NCBI GenBank assembly: GCA_021201815.1 | Contig: JAJQEC010000056.1 | Coordinates: 5,926-69,925 of the forward strand | DNA length: 64,000 bases | Source of the DNA: Candidatus Azobacteroides sp. | GTDB lineage: Bacteria > Bacteroidota > Bacteroidia > Bacteroidales > WRGA01 | Direction of reading: 5' to 3' | In this document: piece by piece, positions 58,020 to 62,630 of the stretch | Numbering within the stretch: the stretch's first letter is position 1 | How the letters are laid out: each line of letters opens with the position of its first letter | Position numbers and translations under genes: made by a program | Notes under the pieces: model-generated | Told to the model about the DNA's origin: nothing | Database searches by the model: none | What the model saw: only the letters and a program-made list of their open reading frames with translations

Positions 58020-59087
58020 TTAATGAGCCTTTTCGAATTCTTTCATTACATCAACCAGAGCCTGTACACTTTCTATTTTCATGGCATTATAAATAGAAGC
58101 TCTGAAACCACCCACCGAACGGTGACCTTTGATGCCAACCATACCTTTCGAGGTAGCGAATTTAGCAAACTCATCTTCCAGATCTTTGTATTCGTCATTC
58201 ATTACGAAGCAGACATTCATTACAGAACGATCTTCAACAGCAGCAGTACCTTTAAATAACTTGTTGCGGTCTATTTCATTATATAATAAAGTAGCTTTTG
58301 CTTCATTTAACTTTTGAATAGCTTCAATACCTCCGAGTTGTTTGTAATACCGCAATGTTTGTAATGCGGCATATACCGACACACAAGGAGGTGTATTGAA
58401 CATACTTTCCTTTTTGATATGAGTGCGGTAATCCAGCATAGTCGGAATCTGGCGGGATACTTTTCCCAATGCATCTATTTTTGCAATAATGATAGTTACT
58501 CCGGCTGGTGCCAGGTTTTTTTGTGCACCTGCATAAATTAAGTCATATTTTGAAACATCTATCGGACGGGAAAAAATATCGGATGACATGTCACTTACCA
58601 ACGGTACATTTACATCCGGATCATTTTTTATTTGCGTTCCGAAAATAGTATTGTTGGAAGTAAAATGGAAATAATCGGCGTCTGACGGTACTTCGTAATT
58701 TTTTGGAATAAAGTTATAATTGCTTTCTTTTGAAGAAGCTACCACATCTACTTCACCAAAAAGCTTTGCCTCTTTGATCGCATTTGAAGCCCAGGTCCCG
58801 GTATCGAGGTATGCTGCTTTTTTTTCCAGTAAGTTGTAAGGAGCCATACAAAATTGTAAGCTTGCTCCGCCACCCATGAAAATAACATCATAACCTTCCG
58901 GTACATTCAGGAGTTCTTTTGTCAAAGCACGTGCTTCTTCCATTACAGCAATGAATTCTTTGCTTCTGTGCGATACTTCCATCAATGATAAACCGGTTCC
59001 TGCAAAATCAAGGATTGCGTCAGCGGTATTTTTGATGGTGTATTGGCTCATAATAGAAGGGCCAGCGTAAAAATTATGCTTCTTCAT
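58020..59087 (-). CDS. serC: 3-phosphoserine/phosphohydroxythreonine aminotransferase
   Basis: N-terminus [11 protein letters not shown] and the PLP-lysine block [14 protein letters not shown]. Length 355 aa. Confidence 0.92.
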
Positions 59088-59314: not shown

Positions 59315-59347
59315 ATGGAAAATTAAAGGAAGTAAGATGTCTTCCTT
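59315..59347 (-). terminator. weak hairpin terminator after the HKD gene
   Basis: Stem aaggaag (59326-59332) / cttcctt (59341-59347) overlapping the stop codon. On the minus strand it is followed by TTTAATTTT. Confidence 0.4.
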
Positions 59348-59870
59348 ATTTAATTCTGTCTCCACAAAATTGTTTTCTTTTACATGTTGTACAGAATTTC
59401 CCTATCCAGATATCGTCAAATTGGTTCACAGCATTTTCCACCAACAGGGAATCGGAAGAAAGAATACCGGATTCAAAATTCCGGTTGTCTTTGCTTTTCA
59501 TACCTATTCCCGCCCCGGTTAAGTTTGCGGAACCTATATACACGGTTTGAAGGTCAAAAAGAAAAATCTTAAAATGAACGCGTGGGCATAAAGTACGTTC
59601 CAGCCTTTCCGCCAGAATGGGATATTTATCGAAATCTCTCCTGAAATTCGGTCCTGGTTCCTTCGCATGCATTAGTCTTATTTCTACTCCCCGGTAAAGA
59701 AGGTCTGAGAGAATTTTAAGAAAAGAAACGGAACTATCGGTGTTTTTCATATACACATCTTTAATATCTGCTGTCCCGATCCATAAAACCTTTTGTACTT
59801 TTTTTATTTTTTCAAGCACTAAGGTATAATGTTCTTCATTAGAAATGTAAATTGTTTTTTTATCCGTCAT
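59346..59870 (-). CDS. minimal single-HKD phospholipase D superfamily protein (Nuc-like nuclease candidate)
   Basis: Complete HxKx4Dx6GSxN motif HFKIFLFDLQTVYIGSAN (residues 99-116, nt 59523-59576). 174 aa. C-terminal cysteine cluster CTTCKRKQFC. Confidence 0.8.
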   Translation of the reverse strand: MTDKKTIYISNEEHYTLVLEKIKKVQKVLWIGTADIKDVYMKNTDSSVSFLKILSDLLYRGVEIRLMHAKEPGPNFRRDFDKYPILAERLERTLCPRVHFKIFLFDLQTVYIGSANLTGAGIGMKSKDNRNFESGILSSDSLLVENAVNQFDDIWIGKFCTTCKRKQFCGDRIK

Positions 59871-60119
59871 TTCTTTGTGAATACTATGAATGCATTTTTT
59901 AACAAAGATATAGTTTTTCTTTTCTTTTAAAGGAAAAGAAGGAAGTTATCATTTTTTGTCCTTTGCCGAAAAATAAAAACAGGACTGTTTTATTTCTTTC
60001 AACAAATTTACCGGTGAACAATAAGGACTTTCAATGGGTTTTAAGATTGCAGTTTAAAATATAATTTAAAGAATACGTGTTTGATCGTATCTTCCTCAAG
60101 TATTTATACAATATATTTT

Positions 60120-61169
60120 ATGGAATATGAACGTTTAAGAAATAAATTAAAAACAGTTACGGTTTCTGCACCCTGGAATACCACGCCGAAAGAAATTGTC
60201 CATTTGGCCGGATGGAGTCGTAGAAGCTGGCATCTGATTGAAGATATTGAATTCTTACTGGCGGAATATGACCTGGTATCTTACCCTGCTTTTTCCAATA
60301 CCTATTCAAATGGACAAATTGTGATCAGTAAAAAAACGGAAGAGGCTGAAAATATAAAAGTGAATGATACCCATCCTTTGGTGTGCCATATCAATGAAAG
60401 AGGCATTTCCAGTTGTGATCCTATTCCGAGGTTAAGCCGGCTACGTTCTGCCAATTTACGTTCTATGGAAGACAGAAATCACACTGCTCTTGTATCCATT
60501 AATCGGGAAGCAACCATTGAAGAAGCCATAACCCTGATGATAAAGTTTAATTATTCCCAACTTCCCATTATGAATGGAAACAGAAAAGTAGAAGGATTGG
60601 TAAGCTGGAAATCAATAGGGAAAGCCAAATGTTTAGGGAAAAACCTTATGCGGGTGTATGATTGCCGGGAGGAAGTAGAAATCGTAAGTATTAATACTCC
60701 GTTGCTGGAGGTTGTGGAAAAAGTATTGAAAAAAGAAGTAATATTAGTAAGGGACACCGATGAAGTCATTTGTGGAATCATTACAGCCACGGATATTACA
60801 GAGCAATTTCTTACGCAGGCAGAACCTTTTTTCCTGATTGAACAGATTGAAAAGTTACTGCGCATTATCCTGATGCGTTCTTCTGTTTCCATAGAGGAAA
60901 TGAAATCTTTGCTGGACCCGGAGAAACTGGACAAAGAAATAAGAGGAGTTTCTGATTTTACTTTCGGACAGTATTTATTGATCCTGGAAAATGAAAATAT
61001 GTTCCTGAAAATGAATTTGACTGCCTGCAGGATAAGGTTGCTGGAGTATTTAAGGAAAATTAATGAGATCAGAAATGATGTCATGCATTTCAACGTAGAT
61101 GAAACATCAGAAGAAGATGTCCGGCATTTGAGGGAAACTCTTCATCTATTATCAGAGATAATGGGATAA
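60120..61169 (+). CDS. N-terminal unknown domain + CBS pair + C-terminal HEPN-like domain (Rx4H)
   Basis: The CBS pair spans roughly residues 115-230 (ATIEEAITLMIKFNYSQLPIMNGNRKVEGLVS...NTPLLEVVEKVLKKEVILVRDTDEVICGIITATDI). The all-helical C-terminus FFLIEQIEKLLRIIL...FTFGQYLLIL...LEYLRKINEIRNDVMHF carries R318-N-D-V-M-H323 (nt 61071-61088). Start taken at ATG 60120, because the track start at 60081 is TTG. Confidence 0.7.
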   Translation: MEYERLRNKLKTVTVSAPWNTTPKEIVHLAGWSRRSWHLIEDIEFLLAEYDLVSYPAFSNTYSNGQIVISKKTEEAENIKVNDTHPLVCHINERGISSCDPIPRLSRLRSANLRSMEDRNHTALVSINREATIEEAITLMIKFNYSQLPIMNGNRKVEGLVSWKSIGKAKCLGKNLMRVYDCREEVEIVSINTPLLEVVEKVLKKEVILVRDTDEVICGIITATDITEQFLTQAEPFFLIEQIEKLLRIILMRSSVSIEEMKSLLDPEKLDKEIRGVSDFTFGQYLLILENENMFLKMNLTACRIRLLEYLRKINEIRNDVMHFNVDETSEEDVRHLRETLHLLSEIMG

Positions 61170-61309
61170 ATGAATCTTTTTATTTTTCGTATCTACTTGT
61201 GAATGTGACTTTTCTACTTTTATCTCTTTTGAAAAATATTTATTAACTATTCAGAATTATTATTACAAGAACAAATTCATTTTCTTTGTACTGTAAAATT
61301 TTATATCCT

Positions 61310-61927
61310 ATGGAAGAATTTTTGAATGAAGGACAAGATCCTAAAACGATAGAGAAAATATATCATCGTCTGGAAGACTTATTACTTCCGGAAGAACACT
61401 TGCTATATATTGCTGTTCAGAAAAAACCGGCTGTGACTATTTCTCCCAACAGTGTAGCGCTAACGGACCGGCGACTCATTCTTTTTAAATCAAAAAGCCT
61501 GGGATTATTAATGGATTTTGAAGAATATCTGTGGTCTACTATTTTTAATTTTACTATAAAAGAAACAATTTTCGGTGCGGATTTTACTTTTAAAACTACC
61601 TACGGACTGGAAATTAAAGTAGATTATTTACCAAAAGCTCAGGCAAGAAAGTTATACCAAATTTCCCAACAGCAGAAAATAAACCGGGAAGAAGCCGAAG
61701 AACCAGTACAAAATCCGACTTCCATAACTGAAAAGGAAGAACCATTATCTGAGTCAGTCTCTCCACAGGAAAAAATAATAGAAGAAATTAAGAATCCTGA
61801 AATTGAGGAAGCGCACGAAGAAGACCTGATGAAAGCTTTGCAGAAACTAAAAACGCTTTTAGACAATGGACTTATTACCCAACAGGATTATGACGAGAAA
61901 AAAGCCGAAATTTTATCGCAATTGTAG
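61310..61927 (+). CDS. bacterial PH (bPH, YokE-like) domain + acidic linker + SHOCT domain protein
   Basis: bPH pattern LLPEEHLLYIAV...VALTDRRLILFKSKSLG...FNFTIKETIFGADFTFKT. C-terminal SHOCT pattern LQKLKTLLDNGLITQQDYDEKKAEIL. Start taken at ATG 61310. Confidence 0.7.
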   Translation: MEEFLNEGQDPKTIEKIYHRLEDLLLPEEHLLYIAVQKKPAVTISPNSVALTDRRLILFKSKSLGLLMDFEEYLWSTIFNFTIKETIFGADFTFKTTYGLEIKVDYLPKAQARKLYQISQQQKINREEAEEPVQNPTSITEKEEPLSESVSPQEKIIEEIKNPEIEEAHEEDLMKALQKLKTLLDNGLITQQDYDEKKAEILSQL

Positions 61928-62194
61928 TATAGGAACAAAAATCAGGATTTTTTATAGGATGGACATAGAAAATCGGTTATCTTAAATCAAAAAAGGTACC
62001 GATAGTTATCCTTAAAAAAGAACAGAAAAAATTTGCTTTTACTGCAAAAACAATTATATCTTACATACGTGGTTAACAGGGATATTCTCTCCTTTATAAG
62101 TAGAAATTAAAGGATATACCCATGTAGAAAAGTTATACCGAAAGAATATTCGGAGTTTCCACAAAATAAAAAAATCTCTTCTTTAATATTTCAC

Positions 62195-62392
62195 CGTTCA
62201 ACCAAAGGTAAACATTCGCTCAACCAACGATAGACGAACGCCCAAGCAACGGTAAACGAACGTTCAACCTGCGTTGGGCGATAACATCTTCCTTTCATTT
62301 GTATAACATTGTCCTTTCAATTACACGACTATAAGCAGTCGTTTATATAACATCAGCTTTATATTTTTCTTACATTAAGCAGTCAAAAAAGT
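62195..62392. repeat. nine consecutive 22-nt phased units (degenerate tandem array)
   Basis: In a 22-nt register from 62195 the units read CGTTCAACCAAAGGTAAACATT / CGCTCAACCAACGATAGACGAA / CGCCCAAGCAACGGTAAACGAA / CGTTCAACCTGCGTTGGGCGAT / AACATCTTCCTTTCATTTGTAT / AACATTGTCCTTTCAATTACAC / GACTATAAGCAGTCGTTTATAT / AACATCAGCTTTATATTTTTCT / TACATTAAGCAGTCAAAAAAGT. Confidence 0.8.
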
Positions 62393-62478
62393 GTGGATCG
62401 ATTTTATGTACATAATCATATATTTGATATCAGGTAAAATATGTTGGAAATAAAAAGAATAAAAGTAATCCAAGCAAT

Positions 62479-62508
62479 CCGTTTTTGACTTATTTTGTTC
62501 AAAAACGG
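62479..62508. other. perfect 10-bp hairpin (terminator-like, strand uncertain)
   Basis: Stem ccgtttttga (62479-62488) / tcaaaaacgg (62499-62508) with a 10-nt loop. The plus-strand reading is followed by CTATTTTC. Confidence 0.45.
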
Positions 62509-62630
62509 CTATTTTCAATAAAAGAAAATGATAATATATTTTTTAGGTATTAGAGATAAATATCATAAATTCAGTAAATTGATCTTGAATATCTTTTAAG
62601 GTAAAGTCTGACTATTCTTAACTCTATCAA

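Follow-up and report, generated by a model that had tools for sequence, protein, structure and literature searches.

DS-11 is a one-protein anti-phage system combining CBS and HEPN domains, reported in the DefensePredictor study and validated by phage challenge in Escherichia coli (bioRxiv January 2025; Science 2026; PMC13092281). The E. coli protein (WP_000257686.1, 365 aa; supplements of PMC13092281) loses its defence activity when mutated in the CBS part (Y157A) or at the HEPN catalytic residues (R330A and H335A), and AlphaFold3 predicts it to be a dimer with ATP (PMC13092281). Fusions of this kind had been catalogued before: in their account of the Swt1/Abi2 HEPN family, Anantharaman et al. 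2013 give "CBS and HD (alr3009), active" as one of the fusions, and they proposed that RNA cleavage by CBS-HEPN fusions is under the control of nucleotide ligands (PMC3710099). Here we analyse a gene for a 349-aa CBS-HEPN protein from Candidatus Azobacteroides sp. (contig JAJQEC010000056.1), located in a stretch of 64,000 nucleotides that we call the window. The gene lies between the core genes serC and trkH, next to genes for a 174-aa protein of the PLD superfamily and for a 205-aa bPH-SHOCT protein, and a reading of the same letters made without database searches (the sequence-only reading) had proposed that the three form an undescribed defence or toxin module. Our results lead us to conclude that the interval 59346-61927 very probably contains a single, stand-alone defence gene of the DS-11 family, located between two unrelated resident genes.

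The 349-aa protein reaches 300.2 bits (E 1.4e-89) with NCBIfam NF053863 (DS11_antiphage, "CBS domain-containing anti-phage protein"), for which the curated equivalog cut-off is 260 bits, and the match pairs its residues 25-344 with profile positions 2-305 of 305. For comparison we retrieved the E. coli DS-11 gene through a tblastn match (L021), the 365-aa open reading frame (ORF) of which agrees with the published protein in length, over the portion printed in the supplements, and at Y157, R330 and H335. BLASTP aligned the Azobacteroides protein with E. coli DS-11 at 34% identity over 236 aa (E 1e-43); in this alignment Y145, R318 and H323 are paired with Y157, R330 and H335, respectively. A family alignment of 30 homologues (32-64% identity) shows no variation at R318, N319 and H323 (in the motif IRNDVMHF), at E244 and R248, or at the CBS signature residues S146, Q147, P149, G159, W163, G219, T222 and D225; the position of Y145 is occupied by Y or F throughout. 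The protein is full length (320-370 aa in the family), aligns from end to end and retains 24 of the 24 invariant family positions. A search with the DS-11 family profile yielded 1,214 clusters at 50% identity with E <= 1e-30, and in the best 150 of these 1,214 the matches span almost the whole profile. These sequence comparisons establish both family membership and the conservation of the three residues that are essential in E. coli. By analogy with E. coli DS-11, from which the function is carried over, the Azobacteroides protein is likely to act in anti-phage defence, and its gene is the sole defence component of the serC-trkH interval. The sequence-only reading was hence right to see in it a defence protein made of a CBS pair and a HEPN domain, and its guess that the combination might be listed in comparative-genomic catalogues is borne out by the 2013 survey (PMC3710099). 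On the other hand, its statement that the protein matched no named defence system has to be withdrawn, as the protein is DS-11 (NF053863), and so does its statement that no experimental characterisation existed, given the phage challenge and point mutants published for DS-11 (PMC13092281).

The organisation of the interval is listed below (window coordinates, with + and - for the strand). The three ORFs, their coordinates and the 249-bp and 140-bp spacers are those that the sequence-only reading had given.

58020-59087, -: serC, flanking the interval on the PLD side
59346-59870, -: PLD-superfamily ORF with a single HKD motif, 174 aa
59871-60119: intergenic region from which the PLD and CBS-HEPN genes diverge, 249 bp, AT-rich (GC 0.26)
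60120-61169, +: CBS-HEPN ORF (DS-11 family), 349 aa, ATG start
60120-60344, +: N-terminal domain, residues 1-75, conserved family-wide
60432-60785, +: CBS pair, about residues 105-222 (Pfam CBS, 1.2e-14)
60552-60554, +: codon of Y145, the counterpart of Y157, which is essential in E. coli DS-11
60786-61166, +: C-terminal HEPN domain, all-helical, residues 223-349
61071-61088, +: HEPN catalytic motif R318-N319-D-V-M-H323 (RNxxxH), the Rx4H of which is read from the translation
61170-61309: spacer between the CBS-HEPN and bPH-SHOCT genes, 140 bp
61310-61927, +: bPH_3 and SHOCT ORF, 205 aa
from 62631, -: trkH, flanking the interval on the bPH-SHOCT side

Judged by their relatives, the three ORFs are real genes and not chance ORFs, because each has hundreds to thousands of homologues. 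Independent gene calling on another assembly of the same genome (L005) yields the same three genes. Each of the three proteins also has a database entry of 100% identity from a Candidatus Azobacteroides sp. metagenome-assembled genome. An alternative TTG start of the CBS-HEPN gene at 60081 gives a protein of 362 aa; the N-termini of homologues align to the ATG instead. The GC content of this gene is 0.383, against 0.358-0.387 in its neighbours, and GC at third codon positions is slightly higher (0.38 versus 0.28-0.35), so that base composition is not decisive as a sign of horizontal transfer. A search for insertion boundaries through flanking repeats, RNA families and terminators brought up chance matches in AT-rich sequence and a single Rfam match below threshold, and nothing else. 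Within the 249-bp region (59871-60119) no significant repeat or RNA family was found, and promoter-like matches were rarer than in shuffled sequence.

Further support comes from the domains of the protein. An AlphaFold2 (AF2) model built from the 30-homologue alignment has a mean predicted local distance difference test score (pLDDT) of 87.5, and is composed of an alpha/beta N-terminal domain (residues 1-75), a disordered linker (76-98), the CBS pair and an all-helical C-terminus (223-349). Pfam CBS matches two stretches of the protein above the curated cut-off, and the best Foldseek matches of the full-length model in the PDB, which dominate the search, are CBS pairs with AMP, ATP, S-adenosylmethionine (SAM) or c-di-AMP bound (E about 1e-7). 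This confirms the CBS fold. Modelled in isolation, the C-terminal domain reaches a pLDDT of 89.9 and a predicted template modelling (TM) score of 0.83, and in this all-helical domain R318-x4-H323 stands at the end of helix 304-322 with a pLDDT of about 90. Of 19 family C-termini, 12 match the Pfam model HEPN_Swt1, each with a score short of the gathering threshold (best E 6e-4), and single members match other models of the HEPN clan. For E. coli DS-11 the authors' own HHpred search returned HEPN_Swt1 with a probability of 0.98 (PMC13092281). Among the PADLOC 2023 models, which do not include DS-11, the CBS-HEPN protein gives weak matches to Cas13a HEPN (E 0.0045) and, around RNxxxH, to CARF_HEPN (E 0.017). 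The HEPN assignment is thus well supported by the motif, the profiles and the published mutagenesis; the fold search gave no independent demonstration of it.

In the N-terminal domain, residues R35, L47 and P56 are invariant in an alignment that includes E. coli DS-11. The domain carries a 'GxxRRG' motif, and it is modelled by AF2 at a pLDDT of 85-95 with a winged-helix-like H-E-H-H-E-E order of elements. Neither Pfam nor PDB sequence-profile searches gave a match for residues 1-75, and the main-text account of DS-11 names only the CBS and HEPN domains (PMC13092281).

The proposal of a three-gene module was examined through co-occurrence. CBS-HEPN loci were taken from genomes (L001-L003), exact-protein look-ups (L016-L020), 80 metagenome loci and six viral contigs, and hidden Markov models made from 120 PLD homologues and from 120 bPH-SHOCT homologues were run on all ORFs of these loci, of which 56 have at least 800 bp of flank upstream and 62 downstream. 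Neither partner family was found beside CBS-HEPN at any of about 95 other loci (89 + 6), the sole locus with them being L005, which is the same genome, and no HKD motif was present in the other ORFs near CBS-HEPN family members at these loci. When 500 neighbour ORFs were clustered, the largest cluster occurred in four loci (of about 89). The 140 neighbours scanned with Pfam, from 70 loci, represented 107 families, each in at most three loci, the commonest being restriction-modification (R-M) components and integrases. Reverse look-ups agreed: PLD homologues (68-72% identity) were found in five distinct contexts without CBS-HEPN or bPH-SHOCT, and bPH-SHOCT homologues in four contexts without PLD or CBS-HEPN. 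The families also differ in size in the same database, with 237 matches for CBS-HEPN, at least 7,936 for PLD and 2,219 for bPH-SHOCT. The CBS-HEPN family thus behaves as a solo gene without obligate partner. Since the family sizes differ, the genes do not co-occur at the loci examined, no partner recurs and the reverse look-ups concur, a three-gene module is not supported; the PLD, CBS-HEPN and bPH-SHOCT genes are neighbours by position only.

In two unrelated contexts a T5orf172/MUG113 gene directly adjoins the CBS-HEPN homologue (L016:5176-13504 and L018:6292-9011). T5orf172 was considered as a partner of DS-11 and rejected, as it represents just 2 of the 140 sampled neighbours.

The contexts of the homologues are those of a gene that changes place. 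The closest relatives of the CBS-HEPN protein (63-77% identity, in Bacteroides metagenome-assembled genomes, MAGs) are found at an unrelated locus, after genes for a ferritin and a PAP2 phosphatase. The gene of a 47%-identical homologue (L016) forms part of a type I R-M operon with the order HsdM-HsdS-[CBS-HEPN]-T5orf172-Abi_C-HsdR, located on an element that also encodes Mob and integrase, and E. coli DS-11 (L021) adjoins an integrase-like gene. Moreover, six viral or prophage contigs from IMG/VR (L108-L113) encode DS-11-family proteins of 29-33% identity, which suggests phages or prophages as vehicles for some members. Such a scattered, context-hopping distribution is what is expected of a stand-alone defence gene, and DefensePredictor explicitly recovers systems outside defence islands (PMC13092281). 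In one Bacteroides MAG the CBS-HEPN homologue is broken into three reading frames (L003:6001-7059), through either pseudogene formation or an assembly error.

The two neighbours, in turn, belong elsewhere. The 174-aa protein has the complete HxKx4Dx6GSxN motif (H99-F-K101-IFLF-D106-LQTVYI-G113-S114-A-N116) and Pfam matches to PLDc_2 (6e-12, 46 bits versus a cut-off of 27) and PLDc (24.5 versus 21.9 bits). Its homologues number at least 7,936; the best are 64-72% identical across genera, and 81 of its 174 positions are at least 95% identical among the best 120 homologues; such conservation is unusual for a defence nuclease. The gene often stands in a ksgA-corA-PLD-LigT arrangement with gaps of 3-15 bp, and its contexts without CBS-HEPN include ABC transporter and TonB-receptor genes, an inserted methylase/ATPase cluster, and a position upstream of serC. 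The last of these is seen in a related contig (L105, 69-73% DNA identity), where PLD and serC share a strand, with PLD upstream, and where CBS-HEPN is absent and the gene upstream of PLD differs from that of the window. Between PLD and serC this contig carries (L105:1210-2358) an HTH_3 and SocA_Panacea antitoxin-like gene with a 114-aa partner, where the window has just 258 bp, and because of this difference we consider that the serC/PLD neighbourhood carries different accessory cargo from one lineage to another. The PLD gene is hence a conserved Bacteroidales resident that belongs with serC, outside the defence system.

Several other features of the PLD protein and its homologues were observed. 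In addition to the HKD motif, the H99 and K101 of which are invariant, there is a second invariant H68-x-K70 ('HAKEPG'), and the four invariant cysteines C95, C160, C163 and C169 may form a zinc site. Directly upstream of, and divergent from, one PLD homologue (L010:886-5818) are an HTH gene, a DNA methylase gene, a HATPase_c_3 gene and a gene for a 432-aa protein, which have the look of an insert in its own right, an R-M-like or defence cassette. Identification of the PLD protein with known defence nucleases was rejected: it reaches 30.5 bits versus a cut-off of 133 for DrmC of DISARM, with no DISARM genes nearby, 16.3 versus 100 bits for DpdK and 16 versus 297 bits for NucT.

The 205-aa protein matches bPH_3 (7.6e-15) and SHOCT (8.5e-9) above the curated Pfam cut-offs. 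Its closest homologues (59% and 55% identity; L012 and L015) are encoded convergently with trkH-trkA-dxs, as in the window, and the gene is therefore a resident that belongs with trkH-trkA-dxs, outside the defence system. Both neighbours being conserved residents, linked to serC and trkH in relatives, the three genes do not make up an insert of non-housekeeping character between two core genes, as had been supposed. The domain and motif assignments of the sequence-only reading fare better, as PLDc, CBS, bPH and SHOCT all pass the curated cut-offs and the HxKx4Dx6GSxN and Rx4H motifs are both read directly from the translations. A search against PHROGs gave nothing for the PLD and CBS-HEPN proteins, and only SHOCT-region matches with no function assigned for the bPH-SHOCT protein. 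Downstream of the latter gene, the spacer towards trkH (61928-62630) is about 700 bp long and AT-rich (GC 0.29), has no ORF of at least 50 aa and no Rfam match, and may be what is left of a gene, or an element that has gone unrecognised; in the relatives L012 and L015 the corresponding spacers are just 8 and 62 bp.

Some of our results weigh against a stand-alone DS-11 gene at this position. The Azobacteroides protein is only 34% identical to the assayed E. coli DS-11. The Pfam HEPN matches are sub-threshold for each family protein taken singly, Foldseek with the C-terminal domain found nothing in the PDB at E <= 0.001, and a PDB sequence-profile search with the same domain found no solved relative. 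The profile check of the C-terminus that the sequence-only reading had advised turned out mixed, the HEPN_Swt1 matches speaking for a HEPN domain and the PDB profile search contributing no match. Around one third of the homologue loci have less than 800 bp of flank per side, so that the absence of partners is scorable at about 56-62 loci per side. Finally, no empty site, that is, the locus without the CBS-HEPN gene, was found in the close relatives L012, L015 and L105, the contigs of the first two having just 67 and 120 bp of sequence upstream of bPH. The insertion of a single gene is hence not seen directly, and we infer it from discordant synteny.

These points have to be set against the other possible explanations of the interval. 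Joint action of the PLD, CBS-HEPN and bPH-SHOCT proteins as one defence or toxin module is suggested by the adjacency of their genes, by the divergent arrangement of the first two over 249 bp, by the lack of a predicted terminator in the 140 bp between the second and the third, which follows it on the same strand, and by the occurrence of PLD-family nucleases in defence systems, together with weak generic DrmC/DpdK-like matches of the PLD protein itself (PADLOC, NCBIfam). We nevertheless find a joint module highly improbable. The co-occurrence test largely refutes it, neither partner family being present at the roughly 95 CBS-HEPN loci and the three genes staying apart in the five PLD and four bPH-SHOCT contexts as well; the disparity in family size points the same way, as do the 64-72% identity of the PLD protein across genera in housekeeping-like operons, the PLD-serC and bPH-trkH linkages that exist without CBS-HEPN, and the action of DS-11 as a single gene in E. 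coli (PMC13092281). The PADLOC run yielded only the weak Cas13a/CARF_HEPN matches of the CBS-HEPN protein and the generic DrmC-like matches of the PLD protein. A more local version supposes that in this lineage the DS-11 gene has become coupled to its PLD-like neighbour through the shared 249-bp control region, as a pair of RNase and DNase. The absence of the pair in the other sampled genomes argues against an ancestral module and less so against a recent local coupling, which we still regard as very unlikely.

Doubt can also be directed at the CBS-HEPN gene itself. Its role could be in housekeeping and not in immunity, with the protein as a regulator that makes RNA stability follow the adenylate or energy state: ligand-regulated RNA stability was proposed for CBS-HEPN fusions by Anantharaman et al. 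2013 (PMC3710099), the gene stands among core metabolic genes instead of a defence island, and its GC content of 0.383 is like that of its neighbours. However, the family is patchy (237 matches, versus thousands for the neighbours), its closest relatives lie at unrelated loci, one of them broken into three frames, and viral contigs carry members, as does an R-M operon located on a mobile element. This patchy, mobile-linked distribution is typical of accessory defence genes. Furthermore, a homologue has been validated against phage, and DefensePredictor finds systems outside defence islands (PMC13092281), so that a housekeeping role appears unlikely. Alternatively, the gene could be in decay or already inactive, a remnant with no present function. 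The Azobacteroides lineage includes endosymbionts with reduced genomes, the host here is a Candidatus Azobacteroides sp. MAG, and the L003 homologue is broken across three frames. Yet the ORF of the window is full length and alignable over its entire extent, none of the 24 invariant positions is lost, the catalytic and ligand-pocket residues being among them, and its AF2 model is confident, which makes decay extremely unlikely.

If the stand-alone DS-11 gene works like its E. coli relative, its mechanism would be as follows. Dimerisation would pair two HEPN domains into a composite RNxxxH RNase site, as suggested by analogy with E. coli DS-11 and by what is generally known of HEPN proteins. 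The CBS pair would bind an adenine-containing ligand in a pocket that includes Y145, and a change in this ligand caused by infection would switch the RNase on. The resulting RNA cleavage would block phage replication, probably accompanied by growth arrest of the host, that is, by an abortive outcome. The requirement for Y157, R330 and H335 in phage defence has been demonstrated in E. coli only, and we infer RNase activity, dimerisation, ligand identity and abortive outcome by analogy.

Comparison with described systems places the protein closest to E. coli DS-11, with which it shares the same three parts, namely the N-terminal domain, the CBS pair and a HEPN domain with RNDVMHF, and the lack of a conserved partner. 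The two differ in that their 34% identity extends over the CBS-HEPN part, one comes from Enterobacteria and the other from Bacteroidota, the linker is shorter here (349 versus 365 aa for the whole protein), and the E. coli gene adjoins an integrase-like gene whereas the Azobacteroides gene stands among core genes. The CBS-HEPN fusions of the Swt1/Abi2 family (alr3009; Pelobacter propionicus gi 118580987) combine CBS with an active, Swt1-like Rx4-6H HEPN domain, as here (PMC3710099), a likeness drawn from their description; some of those catalogued in 2013 carry in addition an HD phosphohydrolase domain that is absent here. Csm6/Csx1 of type III CRISPR systems follow the same logic, with a nucleotide-binding sensor fused to a dimeric HEPN RNase, but this is an analogy and not family membership: their sensor is CARF and not a CBS pair, no cyclic-oligoadenylate synthase is linked to the gene here, and the sole similarity is the one at E 0.017 near RNxxxH.

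The best superpositions of the C-terminal domain, although non-significant, are all with HEPN proteins: HepS (PDB 9oij), 1wwp (TM 0.42) and HepT toxins. HepS, an anti-phage HEPN protein of the Gifsy-1 prophage, comes first, with a TM of 0.45-0.47 and a root-mean-square deviation of 4-5 Å over about 105-112 columns (E 1.4-2.1, probability 0.41-0.44), and has no CBS domain. As for the 174-aa neighbour, it has in common with nucleases of the Nuc/DrmC/DpdK type the single complete HxKx4Dx6GSxN motif, the PLDc_2 fold and the small size, but fails the equivalog cut-offs, lacks DISARM or Dpd partner genes and occurs in housekeeping-like contexts, with its four invariant cysteines and second HxK.

Both the CBS+HEPN architecture and the function deduced from it agree with the prediction of 2013 and the validation of 2025-26; they are correct and already known. 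The discovery value of the locus is accordingly little, the architecture having been predicted in 2013, validated as DS-11 in 2025-26, and the protein being named by an NCBI family model. It offers instead a worked example of the point that genes with suggestive domains are not made into a module by lying side by side in one genome. For the family, our analysis draws attention to the conserved N-terminal domain of DS-11, with its invariant arginine, that is unmentioned in the published main text. For the organism, the outcome is a DS-11 member from Bacteroidota that sits among core genes in an Azobacteroides MAG, which fits with many defence genes lying outside defence islands.

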